A stretch of 63,784 bases of DNA, the filler included, from Folioceros fuciformis (Eukaryota): assembly GCA_049999805.1 (NCBI GenBank). It is 10 parts of 10 records of this genome, joined end to end, with 100 filler letters (N's around TTAATTAATTAA, not from the genome) between each part and the next. Parts side by side here need not be neighbours in the genome. Positions count along the whole stretch, not along the records: positions 11,994 to 27,783 come from JBNGIO010001074.1; 9 more parts are not named here. One strand, 5' to 3'. Shown piece after piece: positions 14,933 through 61,824 of this stretch. Position 1 is the first letter of the stretch. Each line of letters opens with the position of its first letter. The position numbers and the translations under genes are program-made. The notes under the pieces are model-generated. The model was given only the letters and a program-made list of their open reading frames with translations. It was not told where the DNA came from and made no database searches.

Positions 14933-16593
14933 TGAACGCCGTTACAGGCCGGTATGTCATAACGTGGTCCATGCAGCGGGCCGTGCCAGCCTTTCATCAA
15001 TCATTTAGCAGGTTCCGAGAAGGGGGTTAGGTCGGGGCCCGGTACGGGGCCGCGTTTATTAAGCGCATCATGGTCTGCCGCCGATGATGATGCGCGTTGC
15101 ACATGTTCCCGGCGGCCCCGTTCTGGTGCACGGAACGGAGTCGGCGCAGATACGGCCCGCCGTTGTCCAGGCCTACCTTCACACGAAGCTGCCTGCCTGC
15201 CTGCCTGTTGGGCCGCACCAGCAGCAGCCCGTGTTGTCGCGGTCCTGGGCGGTTCAGATCCTGGTCCTGGTCCCGATCGGACCGCGCTCCTCTTCTCTCC
15301 ACGGCATGTTGCCGATGCTGGTGCCCGGGTTCCCAGGATGCGACGAAACTGGCGGGCTGAGCAGCCTGGAACAGGTCCAGTGTGATGGGAATTCGCGTCT
15401 CGTCTCTCGTCCCGTCTCGCTCTCACCTGTCCAGGGAAGGAGAGGCTGGCGTGGCCTGCCTCTGCCGTGGCCTGTAGCTGCTGCTCATCCAGCTCATCGT
15501 CTGCACCGCACTGCTCTGCACTGCGACATTGCTGTTTTATCTTTGTGTCTGGGAATGCCCCCAGTTTGGCTGCCTCCGTCTCTTGTGTGTCGCCTAGCAC
15601 GGCCTCCAAGCCCTGCTTGCTTGGCCTCATGTGCCGACTTTTTTATCTCCACGTGAACAGAGGAGGAGGAACAGGGCCGCAGCAGCCAGAGCACAGCAGC
15701 AGCAGCAGCTGCTGCAGGTGAAGGTGAAGGTGAAGGAACAGGAGCAACACGCGGCAGGAAAGAGGGTGGACGGCACCACCTCCCTTCGCTTGCTGATATT
15801 CCTCTTGCTGCCCCAAGCCCCTTTTGCACCAGCCATAGCCATAGCCACAGCCGCAGCCTCGAAGAGCGAGCTCCTCCGGCTTCCACGAACACATCTCTCG
15901 GCTGGCCTCGGATCTCGCATGTGCAGCTGCCTGCTGCTGGTCGTTGAATGATGCAGGCAGAGCCAGGGCTCACAGATCGGGACAAGTGAGAAGTTTCTTG
16001 GCCGGCTGTTTGCGTTTCTGTTGCTCTTGTGTTCTGCCTGTGTGGTGATACCGGTGTTGCGGGATGCGGAGCTCTGGTCCGGGGTTGACGTCGTCGGGCC
16101 ATTTACTCGTCGCAATCCGGGTTCTTGTTCAGGGACTGCAGCGCGGTGTGGTGTGGTTTTAGGCAGTCTGTTTGCGCGGTGAGCGGCAACGGAAGTGAGC
16201 AAGCAGATGGTGCACTGTAGATTATCTCCAGTGCTTGGCTGGAGGAAGCGGGTGTGGAAGGGGAGGTGTTACCAAAGGCCTCTCAGGCTTCCTTGACTTG
16301 AATGTTCGCCGAGCCGTTTTGCGTGCCTCTCATGCGGTTGCGCTTGCACCACCGTCAGTCTGGAGCAGGAGGCGCAGAAAATGCGGCAGCCAAACGTGCA
16401 GCACCGCTGGGACGCCTTGAAGAGGTTATCGCCGCTGCCTAGAGACGTGTCAAGTAGCGGCAGCGGGTCGCATACTTCGAATGTGCAGTGCTCTAGAGGA
16501 GACAGCAGGAGCTGCCAGATCTGATGCAAGTTGCTGGGACGGGGTGCTGCATTTTCATATCCCGTGGAGGAGCCGTCTGGCCTACACTCGATC

Positions 16594-19500
16594 ATGAGTG
16601 ATAGAGGAGGGCATAATGCATCCACTACGACATGGCGTCTGATCTCCCTCTCAATTCTCTCGCTCTGCGTGCTGCTGGAGCTTCAGCTGGTTCAGCCTGC
16701 CAGCGTTTCCGCTCCGGCAGACGCTTCCGCCCTCCTAGACTTCAAACAGGGGCTGTCTGATCCGACGGGCTTGCTCTGGAACTGGGGTAACTCATCTGTC
16801 CCTCTCTGCAATTGGACGGGAGTCTCCTGTGGTCCTGGACAGTCGCAGCAGGTTGTCTCTCTGTATCTTCCCCGGGCCCTGCTCAGCGGTACCATCTCGC
16901 CAGCGCTTGGACAACTGTCTGCGTTGAGAGCTCTTGATCTCTCTTCCAACTCTTTGTATGGCGAAATCCCTCCACAGCTTGCCGAGTGCTCCCGGCTCAA
17001 GGCGATCAGGCTGGGCAGCAATGAGCTTACTGGCTACATCCCGGACGAGCTTGCAACTCTTACTCGCCTAGAGGTTCTCGATCTGAGTTACAATCACTTC
17101 GCTCCTGCTGCGGTTCCTGCTGCTCTTGCGAGGCTTACTAAGCTGTTGGAGCTCAATCTTGGGGGCACGAATCGCACTGGTCAGATTCCGCCCGCTTATT
17201 TCGGCGTCAATTTCAAGAGCCTTCAGAAGCTCGAGTTGCCGCAGAACAGGCTTGATGGGGAAATCCCTATCGGTGATGATTGGGTTTGTGGCAACCTCAC
17301 GTACCTGGACCTCAACAACAACTCTCTCACGGGCCCCATCCCTCCGCAGCTGGGTACGTGTGCCAGTCTCACCTTTCTGGATCTGAGCACCAACAGACTC
17401 TCTGGTCCCATTCCGGAAGAAGTAGGCAACCTGCTCTCCCTGGTCTTCCTCTGGGCCTTCACCAACAACTTGAATGACAGCATACCGTCATCTCTTGGCA
17501 ACTTGAGGAACTTGGAGAGCATCCGTCTTGGAGAGAATCAGCTGTCAGGTCCTATACCCGATGAGATTGCTGGATGTACCAGTCTCAAAACTCTGGGATT
17601 TGCATCTGCAGGGTTGTCGGGTCAGATCCCTCCTGGTTTGGGAGGCCTGGAGTTTCTTGAAGAGGTTCGGTTGTACAACAATCGTCTGACAGGCTATTTG
17701 CCCCCAGAGCTCGGGAACTGTAGCCGATTAAATGTCTTGGCTGTGCACAACAACTCCATCGGAGGGAATATACCATCGGAGTTCGGCTCTCTCAGAAATC
17801 TCTCTACTCTTTATTTGTATAGGAATCAGCTTCAAGGTCCTATTCCGGAGTCGCTGGTGAACTGCACTGAGCTGACTGGGCTTGATTTTTCTTACAATCA
17901 TCTTGGGGGTGAGCTACCCGATGACATTGGCAAGTTGGTCAACCTCCAAGTGCTCTCTCTTTTCAACAACAACATCACAGGAACCATTCCTTTATCCTTG
18001 GTCAATCTTGTTGAGCTGCAGACTCTGGATTTGTCTTACAATGACTTTTATGGTACCGTGCCACCAGAAATAGGGCAGATGCCCAAGCTTCTTAATCTTA
18101 TACTGGCAGGGAACTCGTTTGAGGGTATTCTGCCGCAAGATCTTGGACAGAACAGTGTCCTTCAGAAGCTGGACGTATCCAACAATAATTTGTCCGGTCT
18201 CATCCCTCCTGGAGTTTGCCATGGGGGCAATCTGTCTTCTTTGGTGCTTCTCAACAACTACTTTTCAGGAGAAATCAATGGGCCCATTGCAAGCTGCACG
18301 TCACTAGTTCAAGTGCGCCTGTCCAACAACAGCTTCACTGGTTCTGGCCCCAGTGATCTATCTTCTTTTGGTCAGCTGTACTGGATGGACCTCTCCAACA
18401 ATGGGCTTGAAGGATTATTTCCTCGAGGGCTCTCAAGTCTGAAGCAGCTGGCTGCCTTGCAATTGTCAAGTAACAACTTTACTGGTGAACTCCCATCAGA
18501 GATAGGGGAACTGACCTCCTTACAGTTATTCAGTGCTGCCAATAATCTCTTTACAGGAAACATCCCACCGGAGATAGGAAATCTGCAGAAGCTCCTGGGT
18601 TTGAATCTTGCTGACAACCTGTTGACAGGGCCTATTCCGGAGGAGATTGGCAATCTGACAGAGCTTTCCTACCTGTTCTTGCAGCAGAACAATTTGAATG
18701 GCTCTATTCCTCAGGCACTGACCAGGTGTGAGCGCTTGCTATCTCTGGACCTGGGGAACAATCATCTAAGCGGACCAATTCCAACAGACATTGGAAAGAT
18801 GGTGACTTTGCAGTATGGCCTGAACCTTACTCAGAATCTTCTCTCAGGCACCATCCCGTCTTCGTTGGGAACCCTTGTGAATTTGCAGGTTTTAGACCTT
18901 TCTCACAATGAGCTGCAGGGCCAGGTTCCCGGTACATTGACGAATTTACAAGCTCTTATCAATTTCAGCTTTGCAGAGAATCATCTTTCTGGCCCCATTC
19001 CTGGTACTTCGCTGTTCACTACTGCTCCTATAAGCTCTTATGCTGGAAATCCAGGTCTCTGTGGGATGCCACTTCCGCCCTGTGCAGATCCTGGGGCCTC
19101 AGGCAGGGGAGGTAAAGCTAAGAGTGGACTGGGTCTGTCCTTGGGAGCTTTGATTGGGGTCATCTTTGCTGGTGTGGCTGCTATCTTGATAGCAATTGTA
19201 TTTCTCTTGTTCTGGAAGAGACAGTATGACGATGAGGACTACAAGTTGAGCCACTCTATCAGTGGCCGTCGGATGGGTTCCATAAACTCCTCAGTGAAGG
19301 ATTTCGAAGGCAGCACCTCAGGCCTCACATATCGCGACATCATGGAGGCTACTCAAGGTTTAAGTGAGCGGAATGTGATCGGGTCTGGTGCATACGGAAC
19401 AGTTTTTAAAGCAGTCTTGCCCACCGGACAGATCCTTGCAGTGAAAAGAGTCATCCTGCCAATGGACGGGTTCACGGAGAACAATTCCTTCAATGCTGAG

Positions 19501-20354
19501 GTTCGGACTCTGGGACAAATCCGCCACCGGAATCTTGTCCGCCTTATTGGCTTTGCAACCAACATGAACCTGAACCTGCTGCTGTATGAGTACATGCCAA
19601 ATGGAAGTTTGGGAGAAGCTCTGCAGCATCCTGATGTTAGGCTGGAATGGAGTTCTCGGTATAACATAGCCCTGGGAGCAGCACAGGGTCTAGCTTATTT
19701 GCATCATGATTGCCATCCTCCTATCATTCATCGTGACATCAAGTCGAACAACATCCTTCTGGATTCAGAACACGAAGCTCATATCGGGGACTTCGGACTT
19801 GCCAAGTTGATAGATGTCACTAAGGATACGCAGTCCATGTCTGCAATCGCTGGCTCATATGGATACATAGCACCGGGTAAGACGCCGGACTCGTCTCTAA
19901 GACTGTATTCGTGTGTCATGTCTGAATCTGTTCATAGCTCCTTTTTGATGCTGCTTACTTCGTTATCTTGACTGTTGAGATCTTTGCTGCAGAGTACGGC
20001 TTCACAATGCGGGTGACCTTGAAGGGTGATGTGTACAGTTTTGGGGTAGTCTTGCTGGAGATAGTGAGTGGCAGGAAGCCAGTGGTTGATGAAATGACGG
20101 ATTTGGTTTCGTGGATCAAAGATAGCATCAGGAAAAATCAAGGGCCAGAAGGAGTGCTGGATTCCCGACTGGATGAGATGGAAGGGCCTCTGAGACGGGA
20201 GATCCTTCTCGTTCTCAAGATTGCCCTGTTTTGTACCAAGGAGAATCCTGAGGAGAGACCAACAATGCGAAACGTTGTGGAAATGTTGATACAGGCACGC
20301 GATCCCAACAGGTCCCCATCCATTGTGCGGACATCGCTTAGCGACTTCATTTGA
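16594..20354 (+). CDS. Leucine-rich repeat receptor-like kinase (subfamily XI-like), two exons 16594-19876 and 19993-20354
   Basis: Signal peptide, LRRNT (CNWTGVSC), >20 plant LRRs, GNPGLCG cap, TM helix, kinase GSGAYG/HRDIKSNN/DFG; single GT-AG intron 19877-19992 at YIAP|E. Confidence 0.95.
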
Positions 20355-21405: not shown

Positions 21406-24012
21406 TCAGCACTGTTCGGCGTATATGTCGTCGAGCTCGCCGTAGGACAGATGTTTCCACGTCGTGTCCACCAAGTTGTCCAACTCGCCCAGCATGCCCG
21501 TTGCTTTATGCTGGCCTTCGTTGTTGTCGGACGACACTCCTGCATCCCGCATCATTTGCCTAATCTGCTCCTCGTCTGCCTTCCTACCAGCCATGCAATA
21601 CATGCTGGCCATAAGGCCATAGGCAGCATCATTTCCTGGCTCCAGCTTAACTAAGCTGTCAAAGACCCGCCGTCCAAGATCCAGGTTGCCATGGCTCTGG
21701 CATGCCACCAACACAGTCATCCACGTTTCTGCTTCAGGTTGGAAGGGCATGGCGCTAATCAGGTCATCTACTTCAGGTAGGTTGCCTGCCCGACTGAGAA
21801 TCTCGACCATGCAGACGTAGTGTTCCTTGCCGTGTACTATCCCAAACTCCTGATCCATGTTCCGGAATATAGAGTAACCTTCGTCAACCAGGCCAGCCCG
21901 GCAACATGCTGAGAGAACAGAAACCATGGTCGCTTCATTCGGCTTCACCCCTTCCTCTTGCATCTGCTTGAACAGCTGCAAGCCTTCCTCAGCTTGTCCG
22001 TGCAGACTGCAGCCTGATATCATGGCATTCCATGACACCACATTTCTTCTGGACAGCTTGTTGAAAACCCTTCGAGCGTCATTTAGGCTCGCACATTGGA
22101 CGTACATGTCAACGAGAATGTTCCCTACCTCCAAGTCGCTGCCCAGCCCACTTGTAGAGATCCTGGAGTGAAAGTGCTTTCCTTGCTCCACGGATGCTAT
22201 GCTCGAACATGCTTTCAAACAGTTCACGAAGGTCGTCTTATCAGGTGACATACCTTCACGCTGCATTTGCTGGAAGAGTCCAAGGGCTTCGTCACCATCC
22301 CCTGCTTCCACATAGCCTTCAATCATGATGTTCCATGACGCCAGATCTTTCTCCGACATGCCATCAAAGACATTGACTGCCTCCTCTTGGCACCAGCACT
22401 TCATGTACATGTTAAGCAATGCATTGCTTAACACCTTATCGATGACCAAACCACCCTTTGTAAGCTCACCATGAATGCGCTTCCCCTCATCTAGGGCTAA
22501 AAGGATCCCACACGCATTCAAGACGGCTACATACGTGAACTTATCTGCAGTAACACCCTCCGCGTGCATTTGCTGAAAGAGCTCAAGAGTTTTCAAAGGA
22601 TGTCCATGACGGACATTGGCGGTAAGCATTTCATTCCACGACACCAGCTCTTTCTTCGCTAATTTGCTAAAAATCATTCGCGCCTCTTCAAGGCTTCCAC
22701 ATCTTGCGTACATCTCCAAAAGTGCAGCTGAAAGAAGTGGATCCTCCTCGAATCCTAAATCCACAACTCGCTCATGTATGTCCCTGCCTTCAGCCAGGGC
22801 TTCTACTTTGGCGCATGCTTTCAGAACAGCGGCATACACGGAAACATCTGGCTCCCCTCCTTGCCGCTCCATTTCCTGAAACAGCTTGAGAGCTTCCTTG
22901 CCTTGATCAAGGTCTGCATGTGCTTTGATGATAGCTTGCCATGACTGTGTGTCAGGGTCAGAAATCTTCTGAAACACTTCGTTCGCCTCCACCAAGCTTC
23001 CACACTCCGCAAATAGCCGGATCAGAGTGTTCCGAATGTCCAAGTTCCCATCATACTTGCTACTCGCAAGCAGTCTTTGCATTCGCTTGCCAGCTGCCAA
23101 ATTCTTGCTTCCGATGCCCTCTTCCAGCAGTCTTAATTCATCCTCAGCAGACCCGCCCTCGTCTTCACTCTCCACGTCTTTGAGAGGCTCACTGCCCCCT
23201 TGCCCACCCACAGCATTCTGCAAACCCTCACCCCCTCCTGCATTTCCTTGAGCAGAGGTTTCACTACCGACAGAGGTAGAGGGATACAAACAAAAAACAA
23301 GTCATGCATAGAAATGAACGTCGCAAACACACGACAACAGCGACCGAACGAAACACGAACACCAGACTGGCAAGACAGCATCTGTTTGCAGTACCACACC
23401 TGGAATTCTGCCCTTGGGATTCCTTCGTCTTCGGAGCATACTCAGGACGATACTCCGCCCTGAAGACTCGGCCCGGTGGTGTATCGTGTATCTTCAACGT
23501 GGCCAACCTTGCAGGAAGCCAGCGAGGGTTGTAAGGGTGATCAACCCACATTGCATCCCCTCCTTGCCAATGCCGAAAGTCTGGATGCCTATGGTCCCTC
23601 TGAGGACCAGCCCGCGTTTCCCACATTAGCAAAACACAGAACAGAAATCCGGCATCGAAAATTTAGGTCGCTGATTAGGTCACAAGCTCCTGCATACCTT
23701 GCTGTACCTAAAATCCCAATACAGATCAGGATTGGCGAAGAGTTTCAACCACAACTGCTCTGTGTACGTTTTCCGGTCTGCACCACGAGCACAAATCGAA
23801 GACTGAGCTCCAATTTCTCACCCCTTCAGGCAAAAATGCCTGTTTTAAGGGAGTCAGATTCACTCACCAACCCTGACGCCGGTTGTGGTGCAATGCCGGG
23901 TCTGTTGACAACCCAATCCCGTCTCGCCAGCTGCAATCAGTGCGACCGCGGCACGCCAAAACTCGAGAACTGGGTGTCCACCCTGGAATGTGCGGCGGCC
24001 GATGAAGGACAT
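21406..24012 (-). CDS. PLS-class PPR protein with E-domain-like end and an N-terminal OSB-type PDF motif; exons 24012-23868, 23777-23698, 23599-23400, 23263-21406
   Basis: PLS repeats (VVSWNAMISG, YARCGSLEEAR, HYVCMVEILSRAG, MPFQPEAETWMTVLVAC), no DYW; upstream exons joined in frame through GT-AG introns give a transit-like peptide MSFIGRRTF... and EQLWLKLFANPDLYWDFRYSK|RDHRHPDFRH. Confidence 0.85.
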
Positions 24013-24168: not shown

Positions 24169-24178
24169 CTAGGGTTTC
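24169..24178 (-). promoter_or_regulatory. Telo-box-like element in the short divergent promoter of RPL37 / PPR gene
   Basis: ctagggtttc = GAAACCCTAG on the minus strand, ~60 bp upstream of the ribosomal protein ATG. Confidence 0.5.
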
Positions 24179-24235: not shown

Positions 24236-24702
24236 ATGGGGAAGGGCACGGGGAGCTTCGGCAAGCGCCGGAACAAGACGCACACGTTGTGCACGCGATG
24301 CGGGAGGCGTAGCTTCCACATTCAGAAGGCACGCTGCTCAGCGTGTGCCTATCCCGCCAAGCGGATTCGGAAATGTAAGATGTGTTGGTGCCGAGGCTCT
24401 GCCGATGAGCTGGACTCAGCTGTTCAGGAATCTTGAATTTTGGAGATGTTTGTTTTGCCTGGTACGCGCAGATAACTGGAGTGTGAAAGCCATCCGCCGG
24501 AAAACCACTGGCACAGGGCGTATGAGGCACCTCCGCCATCTACCTCGGCTTTTTAAGAACAATTTCAGAGAAGGTTAAGCCTGGGTCCCTCTCCTCAGCC
24601 GTAATTTCTCTGAATCGTAGCTCGGAATCTGAACTGTTTTCATTCCTGTGGACAGGAACTCAGGCAGCTCCAAGGAAGAAGGATGCTGCGGGTACTTTTT
24701 GA
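24236..24702 (+). CDS. RPL37: 60S ribosomal protein L37 (eL37); exons 24236-24374, 24472-24573, 24656-24702
   Basis: [68 protein letters not shown]... Confidence 0.97.
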
Positions 24703-35771: not shown

Positions 35772-35901
35772 AGCACATAGCATGAGAGTCTGCTGTACAT
35801 GTGCAACAGCCCCTGGCGAATTTTTTTCAACTCGGGTTGGAGTGTGAGCATCTAGATGTAGAGGACGGCAGGCGCACGAGGGGATTGTATACCGTTTCAG
35901 A

Positions 35902-37890
35902 ATGGCGATCATAGGCATTCATTTCGGTGATGAACGATGCTCCGTTTCTTGCTGCTTGTACGGGAGCGAGATGATAAGGGAAGTGCCTATAAGTCTGTAC
36001 TACGAGAAGGAAGCGGAATCGCAAAATGGCTCCTGCTCCGACAAGTATAAGGTTTCAGCATGGGGCCAGGAAGCAAACTTGCGTCATGGACGAGACTTGG
36101 CAGCAGAGGCGACGTCGTCGGAAGTAAGGCGCGGCGTGTATGTGGAGAATTTTTGGGGGCATCTTAGCTCGGGCCAGGCGACGTCCCAGATGTGGTGGTG
36201 GCAGGGGGACCAAAGACGTGCAAATGCAGGCGTAGGGGACATTCCCCAAGGTCTTTCACTGGTTACCGTTCTCACGGACTACTTCACTAAGCTCTCTGAG
36301 TCTGCCATTCGTTACGTGAACTGTAATGGTCGCGACAGCATTACGAAAGAGTCCACCCAGTGGAGCCTCACTGTGCCATGCATTTGGGACGAGTCTGTGC
36401 TGGAGACAGTGAGCGAGTGTGTGGAGAGAGCGGGCATGACGGCAGGCCCCCTCTGCCCGCCAGAAGTGGCAGCACTGGCAAGCCCTCATCCTGTGTGCTT
36501 TGTTCCGGAGTGGGAAGCCGCAGCCCTGCATTGTTTTAATGGATTCAGATTGGAGCTAGGATCTGAGGTGTTGGTGGTAGATGTCCGGAACCACGTCACG
36601 AACCTTGTCACTTTGAGGGAGTGTGAAGGAGCCTTTAGCTTTGTGGAAGGCCGCACCATCGCCAGTGGTTGTTGTCTCAATGATATGGACGAGAAGTTCT
36701 ACGACAAGGTGCGGGCAAGCATTGACTGCTTCCACGAGCTGGAGAGACACAACCCTGCCATCAGAACGAGCTTGCGGAAGGGCTGGCACAACTTTTGCTT
36801 TTACTTGGACTTGGTTCACAACATACGCTGGTTCAAGTTGCCTGAAAAGCTGCGAAAAGCTTGGAAGGAACACAACCGGTCCCGTCGTGATGACAAACAT
36901 CGCGTGAGGGGACTTTATGTGGATTGGGAGCAGATATGCGGTCCACTGGCAGACAGAATCGTCAATCTGATAAAAGAGTGCCTGAGGCCAGACGTGAAGG
37001 GGTTATGCATAATCGGGGAGTACTCGTTTCCCAGCTACTTGGGGAAGAGAATAGGCTCAGTTTTCGGAAGCAAGTTTGGTGACGGCATGAAGCTCCCGAG
37101 CTATCCCTCCGGTACTATGTGCCGAGGAGCTGTAAATTTCGGCTTAACCCTTGCCTTGCGATCGCCCCGTAGTATGCGCTACGAGTTGGAGCTCCAGAGA
37201 TCGCGTTCGAAGGAGCTGCTCGATCGGGCTGCCTTGGGACGGGTTGTTCAGAAGCAGTTATCCGAGGTCAATGAAAATGTGATGAATTGTGTTGAAATCA
37301 TAAACAAAGTTTGTCTCGAAGCTCTAAGGAGTGTCGATGCGTCACAAGGTCTTGCAGATTTCATCAGGAAAGTGCACACCCGGAGCATTCGACAATCGGA
37401 ACTTTTCATGGAGGCAGTGGCGGCGTTTCAGTCTAGGAAATCGTGGCACAGGCATTCGGCGACGGAAACAGCGCGTAGTGTCACGGAATCCGGGACAGGT
37501 AATTTCCTCCAGGAATGGCAACCGGAGATGTCAGTTCAAAGAACTTCTTACGAGGCAGAGGTGCAAAGAGTGCTGGGGGAGATGATTGAGGCTATGGGTT
37601 CCGCACGCACCTTGAAGGAGAACAATGCAAAGCTAGAGGCTGAGAACTTGGCTTTCCGGGCTCAAGTGCAATCGCTACAAGTGGGGATGGACAGAATCGA
37701 ATCGGAAAAGCAGAGGATTGAGACACAGATAGTATGTTCCATCTGTCAGGACAGACGTCGGAATGTGGTGATTCTTCCATGCCTTCATGCTCAGTATTGT
37801 GAGGTTTGTCTGGCTCAGCATCGTGCTACGAGAGGAACATGCCCTACTTGCAGAGGAGCGATCAGAGGAACTTTGCAACTGTTTTCCTGA
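35902..37890 (+). CDS. Intronless Hsp70/actin-like ATPase-fold (HSPA12-like, degenerate) + coiled coil + C-terminal RING finger protein, 662 aa
   Basis: IIGIHFGD, WSLTVPCIWDE, PEWEAAA, VLVVD, CRGAVNFG; heptad-rich LKENNAKLEAENLAFRAQVQSL; CSICQDRRRNVVILPCLHAQYCEVC...TCPTCR. Confidence 0.8.
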   Translation: MAIIGIHFGDERCSVSCCLYGSEMIREVPISLYYEKEAESQNGSCSDKYKVSAWGQEANLRHGRDLAAEATSSEVRRGVYVENFWGHLSSGQATSQMWWWQGDQRRANAGVGDIPQGLSLVTVLTDYFTKLSESAIRYVNCNGRDSITKESTQWSLTVPCIWDESVLETVSECVERAGMTAGPLCPPEVAALASPHPVCFVPEWEAAALHCFNGFRLELGSEVLVVDVRNHVTNLVTLRECEGAFSFVEGRTIASGCCLNDMDEKFYDKVRASIDCFHELERHNPAIRTSLRKGWHNFCFYLDLVHNIRWFKLPEKLRKAWKEHNRSRRDDKHRVRGLYVDWEQICGPLADRIVNLIKECLRPDVKGLCIIGEYSFPSYLGKRIGSVFGSKFGDGMKLPSYPSGTMCRGAVNFGLTLALRSPRSMRYELELQRSRSKELLDRAALGRVVQKQLSEVNENVMNCVEIINKVCLEALRSVDASQGLADFIRKVHTRSIRQSELFMEAVAAFQSRKSWHRHSATETARSVTESGTGNFLQEWQPEMSVQRTSYEAEVQRVLGEMIEAMGSARTLKENNAKLEAENLAFRAQVQSLQVGMDRIESEKQRIETQIVCSICQDRRRNVVILPCLHAQYCEVCLAQHRATRGTCPTCRGAIRGTLQLFS

Positions 37891-38629: not shown

Positions 38630-41600
38630 CTAGACGTGGAACTCCGGGCGGGTGGAAGGGAAGCACCGTGCCACAGCTTTTGCCACAGGACCTTCGGCAA
38701 CCAGCTGCAACGAACGTGGGCCATTTCATACATCAGTGCGCAATAAGCATCGCAGCAAGATGGTCTAGGAGAACAAGTTCAGAGCACTGTTACCTTTTGC
38801 CACAGAATGAGAGCGAAGAGATTTGACAAAATTAACCGCCACAGATGGAACCTCAGCGTAAACGACTTGGAAGGAGATGGTAAGCCACGCTCCTAATGTT
38901 CATTCGGACCACGAACGTGAACGGGTTGGTTATCGCAGGGTGCATCAGAGTTATAAGCAGAATGGTCTAAAGGACAAACCTGATACGCTATCCACAATGG
39001 GGATGTGGAATTTGACATGTTAAAATCTTCGCTGGCGACATGCCACAAGCTGGTGAAGCATTTGTGAGGAAGAAGGACAGTGGACATGAACGCAAGAAGG
39101 CTCCCGTACGTAACCTACACATCAACAACTGAGTAAGCGAGTGTCTTCCCCCGAGAGACAAATTTGCCTCACACACCCAACAAAGTGAGAACTTACCATG
39201 AGGAGCCAATTTGTGAATACGTTTTTCCGAAATCTCGCCGAATGTGAACACGCATGCTGCTGTAATAAATTGGAAGTACACGGTAAAAAATAGGACTGTG
39301 GACTCCCGGTTGTCACCCAGAGTCCACCAACTCACAGAATGGGATTCTCTGCAGTGTACGCGAAGAAATTGTTAGGAAAGTTCCAAGCTTATCACATGCT
39401 TTTCGCAGGAGCGAAGCATTCCATCTTACTCTGCTGGCCACTTCACATAATCAGTTTGGCTACTCATGAGGGAGACGGCTCCAACGAGGAAGACGAGATT
39501 GATAACCCACACACCCAGAACAGATGTAACATTTATCGGTCCCAGAAGACTTGATGTCGGTCGCACCTAAACGCAGACCGAGGTAAGGTTGCAAGCACTC
39601 GACATGTTTTATCCCACCAGATTCATGAAAAAGCAGCAAGAGGGGATACCTTCGCTAGTTTGTCCTCTGGATAGCTCAGAGTCATGCAGTAACAAAGGCT
39701 CTAAACGGCCACTCCATCAATATACGCATAATCCATCTGGCAAGGGACGATTCCATAGCTACCAAATAAACAATTATCAACCATGTCAACGGACTTTATC
39801 ACCACTTGCTTCTAGGCACACTAAGACGAGTTAGACCTATTGCCAGAAGGCACACAGCTTGAGGACAGAGAACATCAATCCGTAAGTGATCAGAAGCTTG
39901 TAGCAAGCGAAAGAGGTATGCAATGCACCTCGACCCTCACGAAGTAAAGCTACAACTGCAGAAACTTGCAGAGCGAAAGAAGTTTTAGCCTTACTGTGCC
40001 TTCGAACTGCCCAAAGATGAACTTTAGCAACGTATGCATACTGATTTGTCCCGAGAGGTGAACCGAGAGACAACAGAAGCCTCTGGTTCACTAAGAGCTA
40101 CGCCTGCACGGGCTGCCTTCAATACGCCACAATCATTCCCGCCATCTCCACACATTCCAACTATCAAGCCCCGATCCCTATGCATGTTTGCCGCATTCAC
40201 CTGAAAAGAGACGGCAAAGCACATGAATTCTTGAAAACACTCACACTTGCCACATTGAAGTGAAATGCCATGGAACGTACTTTATTTGAAGGGGTGAATC
40301 TTGCAAATATACGAGTGTAGAAGAGAAGCGTATCCATCACTTCCGACCTTGTTATGACTTCAAATGCTTTTCCCGTAATAGCTAGCTCCACAACTCCTTC
40401 ACGCATTCCTTTCAAGTTGTAGTTCAAGAGCTCCTCAGTACTTAGTCATCTTTCACCTTCATCACTCGTGCAAGACCACCTGATACTGCAAATCGCCTCA
40501 CAACTCACGGTTGTGTGCAATACGCGAAGACACAGTCGTGAAATGTCAAAACCGGAGAGCCAATTAACTTGATGGACGTGCATTAACCTGTCAGACTCCG
40601 TGATATTGCCCAGTAGAACTTTGACCTCAGGAGAAATCATGCCACATTCTCCAGCAATATACCTTCCGAATGGAGCATTGCGACCAGTGACCATAACAGA
40701 ACGAACCTACGTCAATACAACAGATAAACAAGGATTAAATTGGGAAAACTTTCCTCACTGAGAAAATCTGTAATGCTGTAATCTAACCATAGCGCCAACT
40801 GCACCTACCTCACCCTCCTTCAATGCAGATATAGTAGCACGGCTGGTTGGCTTCAGCTCGTTCCGGAAGAGTATGATAGCCAAAAACTGTAAATCCGTTT
40901 CTAGTTCATCTCTTGATAGAGCTGCAACTTCAGCCAAAGATAGATTTGAAGGAAGTTTTCTGTAGATGGTTCTGTAAAGTATCAGAGAGGACGTTCAAAG
41001 CCCCTCAGAAACTTCAGATAATACTATGCAATGTAACCTGCCTGCAAGCAAGACCAAGCACATAGCAGCCATCAAGAGCATGAGCGCGAGCTCGTTTTAC
41101 CTAGTCATGAGGAATGCTGTTGTCATCGTTCAAGTCCTTCATCTTTCCTAACGCACCCTGTTGTGGCCTGAGCTTGTAAGGATACACCCAACAACTTTGA
41201 AAGAGTCCAAACAAATGGCAAAGCAAACTCTCACCTTACAGTATATATGGAAGATGCCATCCTTCTCCCGAACAATGACACTCATCGTTGTTCTAGAGTG
41301 TTCAAATTCGTTGCGCTTGACCATGTGCAGCTCCTCACCTCTCTTGCTCCGTACAATTGGTGGATGGGCACCTTCCACTAGTTCTCAGCCAATTGCAGAG
41401 AACATTTTAACCTGTGACACAAGTTGATAAGTGAGCTTACCACTGAAAAAATCCAACGACCGGCCTTATTGCGCTTGAGAACACTAACCTCAACTTGATT
41501 CCCAACGAACTCCTCGCCAAATTTGGAAACAGTATGGCACGTTGCCAAACCATACAAAGTCAAGTCATCGACACTATCGCCGTTATGGGGTGCCACGATG

Positions 41601-44600
41601 AGACCAAATAGAGGCCCATTTTGTCCAGTGCTGAGAACGCTCTGGACACCTAGAAAGTGAAGTCCTTCTCCAGTTAAAGTGCCCGTCTTTTCGAAACAGA
41701 ACAGGCGAATCTTGCCAGCAATGGCTATGCGCTTTGGGTTTAGACTAAATATGCCCCTGGCCTGCAGAAAACATTTCCGAGCTGGGAGATCATGTTTAAC
41801 ATTGTTGCTGATGCAGTAAGCAATTGTGTGTGGCAATAACGTCTGAGTAGTAGCATCATGCCTTCAAGCGTTCAACCGCATGGAGTTGACCAACTTCAAG
41901 AGCAACAGGTAGCAATGGCGACATTATCTGATTTATAATTGCCATGCAGAGTATCCATTTTGTCACCCAGATGTTCTGAGCCCCAGTATTATTCTGCGGC
42001 AGTCCGAATTGGAATCTTATTTCAGACTCTGCAGAAAATACAAACAGTAGGATATTGCGCTTCTGGTGACAGCAATCTTGTTAGAAAAAGGATCAGTTGT
42101 AGATAGAATACCAGTTGGCATACCTGAAACATCAGAGCAATGATGAAGCAGACTATTGCATACGATAGCAAAAGTAGCACCACAATCGGAAGTTCCTCGT
42201 CGTACCTGATAACCATCTCCTCTGGATACAATATGCTGGATAGTAGCTTGCCTTTCGAGGTTGACATCCCTGGTCCATGCAATCCATGTCAAGTGAAACC
42301 AATCAGGTGGACCAAACACATACACTCCCCAACATCTTCCATAAGGACAACAAACCTGTGGCTGTGACTATTGCTGTTACTTCCTCATGGCCCTTGCCAG
42401 CCTGAAGCACAATGGTACCAGAGAAAAGTGTAAATCGAGCGTGATAGATATCAGGTTGGTATCCATCTGGTGTGTTGGAGGAAAAGTACTTTTGTACGGG
42501 CATAGCCTCACCAGTGAGCATGCTCTCATTGCAGACACAAGATCCTTGAGAACAGATAAGCAACACACTTAGTGGACAAGCAGAATGTTTCTCCTTTCTC
42601 AGGGTGCGTCTTTAGGATGTGAGTGCCTGTTGAGAAGTACTCACCGTTTAGGATGAGCATGTCACATGGTAAGATCCAATCACTCTTCACTCTCAAAACA
42701 TCTCCTGGGACTAGATGAGCTGCACTGATTTTCTTCCACGTGCTGTCACGGAGAACATCGGCATCTGTGACATGTTTGGTGATCTGTAACCATTGTGAAG
42801 CGTCAGCTCAAAATTCTGCGGGTTATTTAAGCTTCTTTTGAGGCTGGCTCATAGCACGAAAGTCTTGACCTTGGCAATGGCTAACTGACTTTGCCGGCGA
42901 CTGTAGATAGTAACAGCAGCACTAAGTAGCACAATGGACGTCATGAGTGAGGCAACGAATAGGTAGCTGTTCCAGAACTGCAATATATACATGACTAGCT
43001 GATATACATGGAACAGGGTGAACAATTCGTCAAATGTAGTGAAGATCAGAGATTCAGGCTTAAACGGAATCTCGTTGAATCCAAAAAGCTCCAACCGACG
43101 TTTGGCTTCTTCTGTTGTAAGCCCGGAATACCCCTGCAAAAGCATGTCAATGTTGCAAGTGCTTACAATCTGAAATGTCTTTCCCAGCTTTTTCATGATA
43201 CTTGGTGATACCTGCAGATAATCACTTAAAGTTTGCCCCAGAGACAGGTGTGCTCGCTGAAGACTATCACCATCGATCAGATATCGCTGTCCTTGAAACA
43301 GGAAGAACCTCTGGCCCCCTTCAGTTTGCTCGATGGAAATCGTCTCAAAATGGCCTTTACTGCCAGGTGGTACAATGAAGTTCTGAAAAGCCAATTATTG
43401 GTCACAAACAGGGAAGGAAATTAGAGGTTGCTATCCAGTTCAGAAGTTGTTCCATGTCTCTAATACTGACACAACCACAATGCAATCTGAGGGTTCTCAT
43501 TACCTTCACTCTCCTGACGACGAGCACAAGAAAGAAGACGTGAGCTGACAGAATTTCTCGGTGATCCAATGCCCAGACATGAACCACGGTTGCTTTAGAC
43601 AACGCACATGGCATTTGAAACCAGTTGTGCACTTTACCCTTGTTCACCACCCAAAGTGTGAACCATACTGATGACAGCCACCAGATCACAAAGAATACCA
43701 GAAAACCAAAATCAGCCCGTAGTGAACAGGACGTCAGAGATGGAGGGACCTCTCGACGCGGCCGTGAGCTGCATGACACAGCTGCGTTAAATAATATACC
43801 AGCTTTACCTTCCCATTCAATTGATAGGTACCAAATACCACATTGTTCCCAAAGAAGCATAAGTTGTCGATGCCGCCCACCTCACACCCATAATAAGTGT
43901 CGACAAGCACAAGCAAATAGAGGGCAAACCAGTGTAGAGAAGTAAGTATGCACAAAAAATAGCAAGCTTCTCCAATAGGTGTCCATGTATAACCAATGAA
44001 TTTCAGTAACCCCTTATCACGTTCAATATCCAGATGAACCTCGTCGCCCCCTACATCACTCGGTAAATTCGAGGCCCTTTTAAATCCTCTGTGTGCATTC
44101 GCAGTCTTATCGTCTGGTACCCCGGTGTCGGCATAGGAGCTGGACTCTTTTACCAGAACCGCCTTCGCAAGTCGTCTCCTGAGATATGCTCGCTTGTAAA
44201 GCTGGAACCCACTGCAGGCTGTGACTACAAGACCCCAGAAAGCGAATACGACCAAGGGACCCGGATCGGTCATACTGGTAATTAGTACATGGCATGACGG
44301 GTCGGCAGTGTAGACCTCTGGGCCTGTTGGATATTTGCCCATTTCCGTTTCACTTCAACTCACCCGCTCCACCCTGATGTAGAAACAGCCTCTGCGTTGG
44401 CGTCACATTTTCTCTCGGGAAAAGCAGTCACATCTGCCTGGCAAGCAGCATTTCAGTGCTGATTTGAGTAAACAGACATGCATCTCCTGGAAGTATAGGA
44501 GTCGTCCGTACTAATCATTCTCCGCTTGCAAAAAACGGTGATGCCATAGACTAGCACCATCAGCGCCATTGCTGGACCCGCTAACTACGATCGGAACAAC

Positions 44601-53429: not shown

Positions 53430-54689
53430 AGTAACACCCCCTTCGACGGGGTGGGGCAGAACCACAAAGTTAAGAAGCCAAAGCAAGGGTTAGTTTTAAA
53501 CACCGGACACAGCACTAGGCCTCCAAGTAGCCCGCCCTCCTCTTCTAGGAGGACTCTTCTAGGAGGACTCTTCTAGGAGGACTCGCAGCCAGCACCCTTG
53601 CTGCAGCTCTTTATTCAAATCACAAGTCAACAAGAACATATAGAATTGGAGGGCTAGAGAGAACTCCTCATCTTTGCCTAAGCTAGGAGTTTAGCTCTCC
53701 CTTCTCTTGACCTCCTCCCACAGCTCCTTCACAGCACCTTTCATGTGCTCTCACAGCCCAAGCAACACATGCTCTCAAGGCATAGCCCAAGCACCCAGTG
53801 CTCTCAAGGCTTTGAGGAGATACTGATCTCAACTCCACTGTACTGAACTTGCCTTAGCCATTGGCTAGGTCCCCTTTTATACACAAGCTCAAATCACTAA
53901 CTTAGCAACTACTTACTTAAGCACTTACTTAAGCCTTAAGCTATTATTCACTACCTCATACTCTTCCTAGGGCTGCATGCTTCTCATGCTCTTAGTAACC
54001 TGCTCTGCTAAACATGCCTCTGCATGGAGCTTACTTGCTTGGCACTCAAACCAGCGTTGTTACTTCCTCCTCCACTAGGAAAGAATCACAGCCCTCAGTG
54101 ATAACCAATGTAGCAATCATCCAGGAGCCTCTCTGGATATCCTCTAATGTTACCCAAACTGGTGTTGAGATCCCACGCAACTTTATCATATACTGTGGTA
54201 GAGTTCCACGTCTTGTAGCCACGCTACCTTCTGCAAGGAATTCCTCAATCTCCCGCAGTCCTTGATCATGCTGCACTAGGATACTGTACTTCTTCCTGTC
54301 CATATCCTCTTTCTCTTTGCCTAGCACAAATGGTTTCAACATAGATACATGAAACACATGGTGTGCAAAAATCCAATCAGGCAAGTCCAACTTGTAAGCC
54401 ACTTCTCCAATGCGCTTCAAGACAACATATGGACCTCCATACTTTGGTCTCAACTTTAAAGACAATCTTTGGGGTAGTGTGAAATGCTTCAGTTTCACCC
54501 AAACTTTATCCCCAACATTGAAGACAGTTTCTCTCCTATGCTTATCAGCATCTCTTTTGACGAGCTTGAGCCTTGGCTAATATCTTTTGGGCAACCTCAT
54601 GCCTAGCCTTCAATTGCTCAACAAATTGGCGTGGATCTCCAATGGTAGTGTCGAAAACTTCAGCATTTAGCATGGATACCACATCCAAA
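53430..54689 (-). mobile_element. 3' end of a plant Ty3/Gypsy element (integrase C-terminus, chromodomain-like tail, LTR)
   Basis: KLRPKYGGPYVVLKRIGEVAYKLDLP...HHVFHVSMLKPF; LTR-like end gtaacacccc at ~53431; (ctcttctaggagga)x3 at ~53540-53584. Confidence 0.8.
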
Positions 54690-54789
54690 NNNNNNNNNNN
54701 NNNNNNNNNNNNNNNNNNNNNNNNNNNNNNNNNTTAATTAATTAANNNNNNNNNNNNNNNNNNNNNNNNNNNNNNNNNNNNNNNNNNNN
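54690..54789. other. Artificial contig-joining linker
   Basis: N44-TTAATTAATTAA-N44. Confidence 0.98.
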
Positions 54790-55313
54790 AGGCGGCGCTG
54801 GTGCACCGCACCGGGGGAGGGAGCCGGCGGCAGCTCAAAGCCGTCCATCTGGGGACGCAGCTGCTGGCGCTGGGACTGGGGTGGGTCGGGATCTGGGCGG
54901 CCTTCCGCGCCCACAACGAGAGCTCCCCGCCCAAGGACAACCTCTACAGCCTGCACTCATGGGTGGGGCTGGGAGTTGCGATCCTGCTCTCCCTGCACTG
55001 GCTCGGAGGATTCTTCGCCCTCTGGTATCCATGGGCCGGACCCGAATTCCGGGCCGGATTCCTGCCGTGGCACGCCCTCGGGGGACTATTCGTGTACGGC
55101 CTTGCCGTGCTGGCCGCCGAGACCGGGATTCTGGAGAAGGTGACGCTGCTGCAGCTCCGGGGCCAAGTGAAGCACTTCGACTCTGAGCCCATGCTGGCTA
55201 ATCTGCTGGGGCTGATTCTGGCTCTACTGGCTGGGTTCACTGTGCTGGCTGCCGTCGTGCCTGATCCCCGCAGGGACAGGGACAGGGAGAAAGGATACTC
55301 TCCTTTGCAATAA
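54790..55313 (+). CDS. Cytochrome b561 (transmembrane ascorbate ferrireductase), 5'-truncated
   Basis: KAVHLGTQ, HNE...DNLYSLHSWVG, FLPWHALGGLFVYGLAVLAAETGILEKVT: heme-ligand His motifs and TM helices. Confidence 0.9.
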
Positions 55314-57726
55314 CAATCACTCTCGTTGTACACTGACAACATTTCTGCAGCTGATTCTGACTTCGGGTTTCCTCCACATTTCCATCTCTTGTTTTAGCGT
55401 CTTTGCAGACATTTGCCCCAAGGCTTGCAAAGCATTAGTGTGGGCAGCCAATCAACCTCCCTCATCGGCACAATGTGCATCTGGTGAGCGACTCCACCAG
55501 CACACTTGAAGGTGCAAAGCCTTGGTCGGATACTATGTCTTCCAGAAGTGCAACACTCCTTGTACAAAATGATAATGGAATATGTAGTTAACATACAAAT
55601 TCCTGCTATAGTGCAGTTGGAGGAGAGAAGTGAGCAGTTCCACATTACAATAGAGACGTCAACAGTGAGTGATTGTCTCAGGTTGCAGAAGAGTCGTCTC
55701 TGATGAATTCTCCATGAGCAGATTTCGTAGTTTCACTGTTAGAGAAGAGAGGAACAGGTCGCTGTTCCAGGGGCTAAGTGCTCGGTTCCAGAACATGGGT
55801 TCCAGAAGAGCAGTCCAACTTCTCTCGAAGGTTCCAGAACATCGGTTCCAGGAGAGTCCTGCCACTTTCTCAGATCAGCAGTTTCACAGGACGTTTTCAC
55901 TTACCAGTTTAACAGTTCGAGAATGTAGAAGAGCAGTTTCTCGTTCTTGTTTTTCCAGACGTGTGATTTTAGGATTTCATGTTTACTCCCAAGAGCGGTG
56001 TTAAGTTTACACAACCCAATAAGTTCGAACCCACATCAACCTCGCATTGGGGTAGTGGAAAGCTAAAAACCCAGCCTTTGATTAAATATTAAAAACAAAC
56101 CATGCATAATTTTGTAACACTTTTCCCTCCTTTTACAACAAAGTTGAGCGCCTCCATTCAAAACAGCTATGCATCTTTGTGGTGTAGAACAGCTACATAT
56201 CTTTGTCATCCAAAAGAGTTAGGTGTGTTTGTCATACATTGTGGAGCAGTACAATAGGGACTTGGATGACAAGTTTTCTTCCAACAAACTTCTAATCTTT
56301 GTATAAGATGAAACCTTGTTAACAAATGTTGGAACAAATGGAGCACATTTTTCATGGAATCGACCTTGAACGTCACTTCTTGCTGGGGATCAAAGAGCTA
56401 AGGAGGTTACATGAGAAATTCTGGTGATTGGACACCATAATGATTAACCATTTCAAAGATTATGCATACATCTATGTGGACATAGGGTACTTGGATGTTA
56501 CTACCTTAAAACTAGTGCGCCCATTTGGGGCACATGGAAATAAGGAGGGGCTCAAATGTGAATGTAAGATCCTCAAGATTACAAGGCCCTAAACATCATG
56601 GTGACGAGGATTCCATCAAGACTCTCTTGAAGAGTGCAAACTGGGTTCAAAGTTATGGTGAGAGCACGAAAAGTGGTGAGAGCAAGAAAACAAAAAAGAG
56701 CCCAAGTACCTCGAAAGAGCAAGTGCAATCAAAATGCAAGAACAATGCCCTCTTACCATCAAATCAGAGTCCGCCAAGCTCATCTTGTAAGGATAAAAAG
56801 GAAAATGCTGAGGGATGCATTATGTCACATACCACTAGCAACAAGAAACCTAGTGCAAATGATTCTGTTAGGCCCTTGTATATATGGAGTCCGCATTACA
56901 ACTACCCTTGCAAGTTTGCTCCAAACAATTCTACTCAGTCCCTTCGTGTGCGGAACACAATTCTTGCAGACAACTCGAATAGGACTTCGAGTGATCACAA
57001 GTCTACTAGGCCCTGCAATACACCGGATCACCCATTTCTATCGCACTCCCAAACATGTTCATCCTCGAAAAAGAGTAGCCTTTCTAATTCAAGAGAAAGA
57101 GAAACCGACCCCTCCAAAGTGCAAGCCCTCCAAATGCAAGCCTATCAAGTGCAAGCCCTTCAGGCCCAAGAGAAGACCAAGATTTCTTTTGAAAAGTTAG
57201 TGGCAGCAGTGCTTGCCTTTCAAAGATGGCGCCATTACCAGTTAAAAGTACTAACAAACAAACCCCTTGGTTTTCTGGTCCAAGTTTTCAATGTGGCTTC
57301 ATGGAAGTGCATCAACACTAGCCTTGATTGCACTTCCTTGTCATTTTTCTTAATGCCATGCTTTGTATGTAGAAAGTGTTCAGTAGGGAGCTGCGGAAAC
57401 TAAATTGGCAAGAACATCCAGTGAGTTAAAAGAAGAAAACCTTGAAGCTACTTACATTGTACTTACAACCCCAACTTTCATGTCTCTTGACTAATAATCA
57501 TAACCCAACGAGTCTATGTGCATGATTAGATCACACCTTTTCAACAAGACACTACTAAGGCACATCAAAGGGCAAGATTACCAGAAGGAGAGCTTAACCT
57601 TGCTGATCAAGAGATCCAATGGCTTCATACCAAGTTGAATCCTATGCAAGGAGATTCAAACATAGCTTCTTGTGCCATACGTATTCAAAGACCAACAAGA
57701 AGTGCTTGTCCTAGCCATGAAACTAT

Positions 57727-57826
57727 NNNNNNNNNNNNNNNNNNNNNNNNNNNNNNNNNNNNNNNNNNNNTTAATTAATTAANNNNNNNNNNNNNNNNNN
57801 NNNNNNNNNNNNNNNNNNNNNNNNNN
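57727..57826. other. Artificial contig-joining linker
   Basis: N44-TTAATTAATTAA-N44. Confidence 0.98.
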
Positions 57827-58840
57827 ACCTCATCACTCTCTGCACTACTGCCCAATGAGCTTGTCCATAGCATGTCAAGAATTGAGATGTTACTCCCACT
57901 GCGTAGGACAAGTCAGGCCTCGTCCAGTTCCTGCAATAGATGAGCGAGCACACTGCTGACCTGTACGGGATGCTTTCCATCTGCCGTCTCTCCATTTCTG
58001 TTTTAGGTGCCTGCTCAACACTCAATTTTTCTCCAACAGCCATTGGCGTTGCAGCAGGTTTGCACTCTGACATTCTGTATCTGGCTAGTACCTGACTGAT
58101 GTACTGAGCCTGATGTATGTGGATGGTGTGTTGTGACATGTCTTGCAGGATCTCAATGCCAAGGAACCATGTGAGTTTCCCCAAGTCTGTCATGGAGAAC
58201 TCAGAGGTGAGTATAGATTTCACCTTGGTCATTATATTCGGGTTACTCGCAATAAGTACAGCATCATCCACATAGAGTGCCAGGAAGACAACTCCGTCTT
58301 TGTCCTCCAACTTGTACACATTTGAGTCCGATTCTGATTGGAGGAAACCTGACTGTTTGAGGTATGTATCAATGCGTTTGTACCAGGCTCGAGGGGATTG
58401 CTTCAGTCCATAGATGGTTTTTATGAGCCTGCATACCTTTCCTGGCTGCTTAGCATCTACAAAACCCTCAGGCTGACTCATAAAAATCGTTTCCTCCAGG
58501 TTCCCGTTTAAGAATGCAGTTTTTACGTCCATGTGTTCCATGGCGTAGTCTCTTTGTGCTGCAATTGCGAACAGGGTGCGAACTGAAGTTGCCCTGACAA
58601 CTGGTGAGAAGGTTTCTGTATAGTCCAGGCCTTCCACCTGGCTATACCCTCTTGCTACAAGTCGAGCTTTAAATCTTGCTATACTTCCGTCAGCTGCAAG
58701 CTTTTTCTTAAATACCCACTTGCAGGTTACAGGTTTCCTGCCAGCAGGTAGGTCCACCAATTCCCATGTCCCATTATCTAATAGAGACTGGTACTCAGAT
58801 GCAATTGCTGCATTCCATTTTTCAGCTTCAGGTCCACTAA
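57827..58840 (-). mobile_element. Ty1/Copia reverse transcriptase, uninterrupted fragment
   Basis: KWVFKKK, RFKARLVARGYSQ, MDVKTAFLNG, YGLKQSPRAW, LYVDD. Confidence 0.95.
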
Positions 58841-59825
58841 CTGCACCTCTGTCAACGGAGGATATACAGCTCATGGAACGAATTCCATATAGAAATGCAT
58901 GCGGATCGCTGCAGCACTTGCAAGTTTCGACTCGTCCAGATATTAGTAAAGCTGTATCACAAGTATGCCAATTTTTTCAAGCATACGGGAATGAGCACTG
59001 GACTGCTGTGAAGAGAGTTCTGCGCTACCTTAAAGGCACAACATCATATGGCTTGATCTATAAAGCAAACAGAAGTCCAGGACGCAGTGTAGCTAAGTTA
59101 CAACTCACAGCATATTCAGACAGTGATTGGGCTGGAGATTTGGAGAAGAGGCGTTCAACGTCTGGCTACTCAGTGGTTGCAGCCTCAGCTACAATTTCGT
59201 GGAGTAGCAAGCGCTTATAGACAATTTGTCTTTCATCTGCAGAAGCTGAATATTCAGCGTGCACTGAAGCTGCAAAAGATGTAGTGTGCCATCGTCAGTT
59301 TGCGCAGGGGTTAGGGATGCAATATGATCAAGCAACAAAGTTGCATTCAGACTCACAGTCCGCCATTGCCCTCAGTCAGAATCCGGTTTTCCATTCGAGA
59401 ACGAAGCATGTGGAGCTGAGATTCCATTATATACGTTAGCTGGTGGAAAGAGGCGATGTCGAATTACATTACATTCCAACAGAGGAGAATCCTGCAGACA
59501 TCCTCACGAAGGCCTTGGCAAAAGCGAAACATGAGAAGCATGTAGCGACACTCGGTTTGAAGAGTATTAATTAGAGTGAATTCGTAGTAATCAAAGATTA
59601 TTTTATCTAACCTAACGGCTAGAAACTGAGGGAGTGTAAGAAACCCGTAAGAAACCCCCAGGTATTTAATGAACCGGTTTAGTTTCGTCGCTCGTTAGGA
59701 GCAGAGTTAGTTACTTTCATAGGATTCAGTTGATAACTGAATAACTGATAAATCGCATGTATTTAAGAAACATAAGCCTGAATAAAGTGTGTGAGTATTC
59801 GTGCAAGCTCCGCCTTTGCTTAGCA
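58841..59825 (+). mobile_element. Second Ty1/Copia fragment: RT C-terminus, RNase H, PPT and 3' LTR (59635-59825)
   Basis: IPYRNACGSL...TRPDI, YSDSDWAGD, SSAEAEY, HSRTKH, ENPADILTKAL; TAG at 59218; PPT ctgagggag then TGTAAG...ttagCA with AATAAA. Confidence 0.9.
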
Positions 59826-61724: not shown

Positions 61725-61824
61725 NNNNNNNNNNNNNNNNNNNNNNNNNNNNNNNNNNNNNNNNNNNNTTAATTAATTAANNNNNNNNNNNNNNNNNNNN
61801 NNNNNNNNNNNNNNNNNNNNNNNN
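61725..61824. other. Artificial contig-joining linker
   Basis: N44-TTAATTAATTAA-N44. Confidence 0.98.

Follow-up and report, generated by a model that had tools for sequence, protein, structure and literature searches.

OSB proteins, which are targeted to organelles, combine an OB-fold/SSB domain with a PDF motif of about 60 residues; according to the accessible text of a 2026 OSB survey the motif is C-terminal and present in one or more copies (PMC13393729). It is sufficient for ssDNA binding in OSB1, as stated in the accessible parts of PMC6963530 and likewise of PMC6451138. The PLS-class E-subgroup editing specificity factors have the architecture (PLS)n-P2L2S2-E1E2 without DYW, and the described members carry only a targeting peptide at the N-terminus. 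One of them, CRR4, works with DYW1. PPR factors that lack a DYW domain rely on another protein for the deaminase (PMC10226603, accessible text). The candidate U-to-C editors of hornworts are DYW:KP proteins, whose GRP and DRH types are hornwort variants of a class shown to catalyse U-to-C editing; synthetic KP editors consist of PLS triplets and P2-to-DYW consensus parts, with no PDF described in the accessible text (PMC9478123). PPR arrays extended by a further module are also known (PPR-RRM, -SMR, -NYN, -LAGLIDADG, -CBS and -SAP, MORF-PPR, RanBP2-PPR). The accessible list of added domains in Physcomitrium PPR proteins does not include PDF (PMC9459714), and neither PDF nor OSB occurs in the accessible main text of a kingdom-wide 2026 editing-factor survey (PMC13386178). 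For inclusion the OSB survey required a PDF together with an OB-fold, and its accessible main text contains no occurrence of PPR (PMC13393729). The main text of two hornwort genome papers does not mention OSB (PMC7027989, PMC8075897), and the accessible supplement of the former names OSB for one gene only. In the literature searched by title and abstract opening no description of a PDF-PPR fusion was found, though subscription papers may contain one.

The gene studied here occupies positions 21406-24012, minus strand, of the window, the 63,784-nucleotide stretch of Folioceros fuciformis DNA that was analysed. Like OSB proteins, its product has a homologous PDF motif of about 60 residues and, probably, organellar targeting, and the gene shares an intron inside the motif with the genome's own OSB gene. 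It differs from OSB proteins in lacking the OB-fold/SSB domain, in having a PLS-E array after the motif instead, and in carrying the motif singly and N-terminally. With the E-subgroup factors it shares the (PLS)n-P2L2S2-E1E2 architecture without DYW, whereas the PDF motif and an acidic linker are additions at the N-terminus and three introns interrupt the 5' part of the gene. Many DYW:KP members of the same genome also have an N-terminal PDF, but they possess a DYW domain and the studied protein, which falls outside the KP clade, does not. As in the known PPR fusions, an extra module is attached to a PPR array. Judged by its sequence, the protein is a PLS-E PPR protein with a probably OSB-derived PDF domain, and neither an OSB nor a DYW:KP editor. 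Its parts, all on the minus strand, are as follows.

23868-24012, minus strand: exon 1, with the ATG and a probable organellar transit peptide, residues 1-48 (from splice model, contigs and composition)
23778-23867, minus strand: intron 1, 90 nt, GT-AG, phase 1 (removed in X1 and X2)
23698-23777, minus strand: exon 2, with the 5' half of the PDF motif (helix and W-x-D-x-R-x-x-K part), residues 51-75 = 23772-23698
23600-23697, minus strand: intron 2, 98 nt, GT-AG, phase 0, inside the PDF motif (from contigs and locus comparison)
23400-23599, minus strand: exon 3, with the 3' half of the PDF motif, residues 76-111 = 23599-23492, then a 31-residue spacer
23264-23399, minus strand: intron 3, 136 nt, GT-AG, phase 2, between the PDF exons and the PPR exon
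23119-23263, minus strand: Gly/acidic linker, residues 143-190, net charge -11
23044-23148, minus strand: degenerate first L-type repeat, residues ~181-215 (by eye)
21733-23043, minus strand: PLS array of 13 motifs, (S1-P1-L1)x3, S1, P2-L2-S2, residues 216-652 (hand parse and Pfam)
21532-21732, minus strand: E1-E2 motifs, residues 653-719 (PF20431, 36.3 bits, above cut-off)
21406-21531, minus strand: 41-residue tail and stop

The sequence-only reading had joined three small 5' exons in frame to the PPR frame, and this model held. The exons (24012-23868, 23777-23698, 23599-23400 and 23263-21406) add up to 2283 nt, that is 760 codons and a stop, and the spliced frame has no internal stop, whereas one-base shifts of the boundaries in four trial models gave 28-31 stops apiece. 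An in-frame stop lies upstream of the ATG in exon 1. The PPR frame had been given as 627 codons; from stop to stop it measures 631. As had been noticed, it has no early ATG of its own, its first Met being residue 203 of the spliced protein, within the degenerate first repeat.

Contigs from two sequencing runs agreed with this structure. Those of run X1 matched the gene with 0 mismatches and contained all three junctions exactly as predicted (23263/23400, 23599/23698, 23777/23868). Run X2, from a different organism and study, yielded a single 2443-nt contig spanning 21398-24043, in which the first two joints were the same and the third was 12 nt longer with the frame kept. Both runs were taken as RNA because the introns are absent (those of neighbouring genes as well); the record label is a guess ('RNA?'). 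X1 is possibly a sample of the assembled genome itself, and X2 provides independent support. X2 is also the stronger proof of a single transcript, because the X1 contig is merged with neighbouring genes. Runs X3 and X4 contained short pieces of paralogs only. Mis-splicing, or two separate genes, was ruled out by these junction-spanning contigs from two studies: the gene is genuine, spliced and expressed.

A divergent neighbour, whose product we take to be ribosomal protein L37, is located at 24238-24700 on the plus strand, with its ATG about 225 nt from that of the PPR gene; one 32-aa exon piece of it had no match in Pfam. Between the two ATGs, near 24176, there is a telo-box-like element, AAACCCTA, and with this spacing and element the two genes may share a bidirectional promoter. 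On the other side a spliced gene (21229-20600, minus strand), presumably related to SHG1/BOD1, starts 177 nt after the PPR stop; a 33-aa piece of it had no Pfam match. Since the X1 contig is continuous over both genes, UTR overlap or read-through is suggested. Convergent with the SHG1-like gene is an LRR receptor-like kinase (16525-20354, plus strand, spliced 19875/19992). Elsewhere in the window we noted a 680-codon frame (35848-37890, plus strand) with a C-terminal RING finger and an N-terminal part that looks Hsp70/actin-like by eye and had no Pfam match, exons of a P-type ATPase (41378-44354, minus strand) and of a cytochrome b561 (54738-55313, plus strand), and, by eye, pieces resembling copia- and gypsy-type retrotransposons (54046-63597).

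The 48 N-terminal residues have a net charge of +3 and are rich in Arg, Thr and Gly (judged from composition). The acidic linker that had been seen between the PDF motif and the PLS repeats was found again (residues 143-190). In the array, motif lengths range from 31 to 36 residues in the hand parse, and Pfam PPR families match. In the PPR code, N/D or N/N corresponds to U or C/U. Of the eight P and S1 motifs, six have N/D or N/N at the code positions, and two have the non-canonical combinations Q/D and A/E. The assignment to the PLS-E class without DYW was confirmed by the P2-L2-S2-E1-E2 end, with PF20431 above cut-off and no PF14432 match in the protein; no DYW remnant was present in three frames down to 21230. 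The protein lacks a PG box as well as the KP box, the HAE active site and a GRP/DRH-type end.

The identity of the motif was examined with two profiles. The first, built from 16 unspliced paralog motifs of the Folioceros fuciformis genome and run against 1.84 billion proteins, matched 1083 proteins at E up to 0.001; of the 150 listed, an SSB domain is present in 37 and PPR repeats in 10, the remaining 103 containing neither, and the named members include OSB1, OSB2 and OSB3. The second, OSB-only profile was made from 89 motifs of the 37 SSB+PDF proteins. Against it residues 51-111 scored 56.8 bits (E 8e-20, one-sequence search), a value that is slightly circular in that the OSB motifs had been gathered with a profile from the same genome's paralogs. 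The isolated segment reached 63.9 bits, compared with a maximum of 11.1 for shuffled sequences (987 reported of 1000 shuffles), so that the OSB-type identity first proposed by eye is upheld. Near-invariant OSB positions are mostly kept, the departures being W to Y, K to W and L to M. For the motif of a paralog a compact fold was predicted with confidence (pLDDT 90.9). Other searches with the PDF motif gave no model in Pfam, only weak CP29-type matches in the PDB by sequence (E 0.046 or worse), a best Z of 2.8 and no Foldseek match at E 0.001 in fold searches, a single lead at 0.75 in the ESM Atlas, which was disregarded, and no match in a word-indexed protein search using one motif. Only 50 residues precede the PDF motif in the studied protein, and none of the three matches to the OB-fold/SSB domain (PF00436) in the genome is on the contig of this gene.

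A single chimeric protein had been proposed, and while the PDF-PPR fusion proved genuine, the gene is not a one-off: it belongs, as a member that has kept its introns, to a very large architecture found mostly on DYW:KP proteins. Exon 3 alone as query identified 37 places in the genome, the whole motif at least 150 (all listed at E 2e-17 or better), and a codon pattern 169 matches versus 3 with a control; the merged lists comprise at least 202 distinct PDF places, which rules out a one-off chimera. Typically there is one PDF motif per protein, with two in some genes. From 100 fetched regions we obtained 99 distinct frames with a full motif. Their ends were GRP-like in 43, DRH-like in 35 and of another KP type in one (79 DYW:KP in all); the remainder were four with a cut-short PG/WW-box end, three long frames without DYW, nine short ones and four running off the locus edge. 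With a DRH-type motif as the main query, this sample leans to KP genes. Several PDF-PPR copies are frameshifted or truncated (L059, L061-L066, L145) and point to rapid birth and death in the GRP-like expansion. PPR proteins with a PG/WW-type box and a cut-short or decayed DYW (L111, L129, L133, L143 and neighbours in L051, L052 and L054) form a well-supported clade, in which the PDF was present in 4/4 members tested.

Seen from the deaminase side, 57 of the best 150 DYW matches in the genome have a listed in-frame PDF (56 by coordinates, and L060), 67 of the 150 having been compared with the listed PDF places by coordinates only. Among 40 DYW frames outside PDF-derived loci, a sample biased against PDF and scored over the frame and about 700 nt upstream, the motif occurred in none of six PG-clade and four of 34 KP frames, two of the four being decayed (decayed motifs: L217, L218). 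Thus the PDF is common on editors of this genome but not obligatory.

Pairwise omega over 56 PDF codons had a median of 0.14 for 42 GRP-like genes and 0.20 for 28 DRH-like genes, as compared with 0.07 and 0.04, respectively, for the DYW part. No pair exceeded 1 in the PDF, dS was 0.7-1.2, and the pairs are not mutually independent. The PDF values are biased low because intact motifs were chosen. The PDF of the KP genes is under purifying selection.

Fusions were also found on record, unnamed as such, in Diphasiastrum, Adiantum, Pteridium, Sphagnum and Calypogeia, so the co-occurrence of PDF and PPR extends from this hornwort genome to clubmoss and ferns, and to moss and liverwort as well. Several of these proteins end after E like the studied one, and some, in Sphagnum and Diphasiastrum, end in HSE..DYW. 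The fusion as a marker of U-to-C lineages was thereby ruled out: Sphagnum and Calypogeia have it, and it is also attached to DYW domains of the C-to-U type. Of the PDF-PPR proteins noted, 18 are named and six unnamed; no seed plant is represented among the 18 (from the 150 listed of 1083 profile matches). Two angiosperm records (P0051, P0042), both single-member clusters, join OSB-like PDF repeats to a kinesin or an ICR-like coiled coil and are probably fused gene models.

The OSB gene of the genome lies on contig C6415, where a PDF motif (L222) comes after the SSB domain in the same orientation; this motif is interrupted by a phase-0 intron after a conserved Lys, five codons ahead of Pro-Asp-Phe. 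An intron of identical position and phase was present in all nine intron-bearing loci examined: the OSB gene, the studied gene, L051-L055, L057 and L204. In the seven other loci, whose introns are predicted from sequence, a PPR frame lies just downstream of the motif. Eight of the shared introns have GT-AG borders and one has GC-AG; the latter, at L054:4510-4610, is the conserved PDF intron with a GC donor in place of GT. Motif similarity together with the shared intron, which is good evidence, points to the OSB gene as the source of the PDF exons by exon shuffling. There is good evidence that the intronless KP copies have lost the intron, which would fit the retroposition that drives hornwort PPR expansion according to the accessible text of PMC13386178. 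A quick tree built from 74 C-terminal regions has PDF-bearing proteins in every main clade. The studied protein belongs to a group with 97% support that contains canonical DYW:PG proteins and the moss and clubmoss PDF-PPRs, outside the KP group (95% support), and it sits on an end branch of 0.62 with no well-supported sister. The tree is compatible both with one early fusion followed by many losses and with repeated captures.

Taken together, the gene would be nuclear and encode a PLS-E PPR protein that is sent to an organelle and most probably serves as a specificity factor for C-to-U editing. The PLS array of this protein would read a pyrimidine-rich RNA stretch, and its E1-E2 motifs, from what is known of the family, would recruit a separate DYW deaminase. 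A PPR protein lies on its target RNA with the N-terminus towards the 5' side. Because the PDF stands just ahead of the first repeat, this polarity would put it on the 5' side of the bound RNA, where it might grip the strand just upstream of the PPR site and so raise affinity or keep the site unfolded. The architecture appears to be spread across seed-free plants and amplified in this genome as intronless DYW:KP genes. We see about an even chance that the PDF is such a sequence-independent single-strand clamp on an organellar editing factor, and this role is ranked above the coupling to ssDNA, nucleoids or R-loops that the sequence-only reading had favoured. Against it stand the reported binding of PDF to ssDNA, with no passage on RNA binding found in the accessible texts, the many KP/PG editors that have no PDF, the decayed motifs, and the synthetic editors that function without it (PMC9478123, accessible text). 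Editing by the studied protein is itself not certain, because it has no PG box and two of its P/S1 code positions are non-canonical. The protein might instead splice, stabilise or process organellar RNA, aided by the PDF; this would suit the missing DYW and PG box, the divergent tail, and the long end branch of 0.62 without a well-supported sister; we consider it improbable, as the complete P2-L2-S2-E1-E2 end is typical of editing factors (PMC9478123, accessible text).

If the PDF retained its OSB activity, it could hold the editor at nucleoids, transcription bubbles or R-loops by binding ssDNA there, permitting co-transcriptional editing of nascent RNA. ssDNA binding is the sole activity reported for PDF in the accessible sources, and the studied motif keeps most OSB-invariant residues; but here there is typically one motif per protein, whereas AtOSB2 binds as a tetramer in the accessible account, and the sequence gives nothing to separate a DNA from an RNA preference, so that we hold this to be rather unlikely. 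The small, Trp-rich motif with its compact predicted fold might instead make protein contacts, dimerising editors or recruiting OSB, a DYW donor or another part of the editosome, an idea that would fit its presence on DYW-less E proteins in need of a partner, the studied one included. Its presence on 79 frames with their own DYW, and the conservation of basic and aromatic residues in common with OSB, which suit nucleic-acid binding, make protein contact an unlikely main role. Very unlikely, finally, is that the PDF is a passenger of a captured OSB exon block, copied by retroposition and of little function. Such a passenger would be expected to be often absent or decayed in related KP genes and scattered over the quick tree, both of which are seen, and retroposition does drive hornwort PPR expansion (PMC13386178, accessible text); however, the PDF omega of 0.14-0.20 at dS 0.7-1.2 and the presence of the motif in moss, liverwort, clubmoss and fern proteins argue otherwise, as do the differences between the X2 contig and the gene, which amount to 8 of 200 nt in the PDF-bearing exon 3, compared with 20 of 176 nt in exon 1 and 168 of 1876 nt in the PPR exon.

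Going beyond the clamp role, it is conceivable, though we think it somewhat doubtful, that the PDF enhances editing in cis in seed-free plants, having been captured from OSB at an early stage of land-plant evolution, and is equivalent to the affinity boost that MORFs confer in trans in seed plants; it might also allow the deaminase to act at transcription bubbles or on ssDNA. The lack of seed plants among the 18 named PDF-PPR proteins (from the 150 listed of 1083 matches) speaks for it, and MORFs are reported as restricted to seed plants in the accessible text of PMC13386178. Since many native GRP and DRH editors carry a PDF and the synthetic ones were built without it, adding the motif would be expected to raise the activity of synthetic DYW:KP editors. 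Routine annotation misses the PDF: Pfam offers no match, an intron often divides the motif, and a 2026 OSB survey retained a protein only if an OB-fold accompanied the PDF (PMC13393729, accessible text).

In seed-free plants the editing of hundreds to thousands of organellar sites proceeds without MORF helpers, and native U-to-C factors have received little characterisation. A putative single-strand-binding domain that is conserved, under selection and apparently unannotated, and that sits on a large share of editors, is a candidate for the missing helper function, and would link OSB, a factor of organellar DNA maintenance, to RNA editing through a traceable exon-shuffling event.
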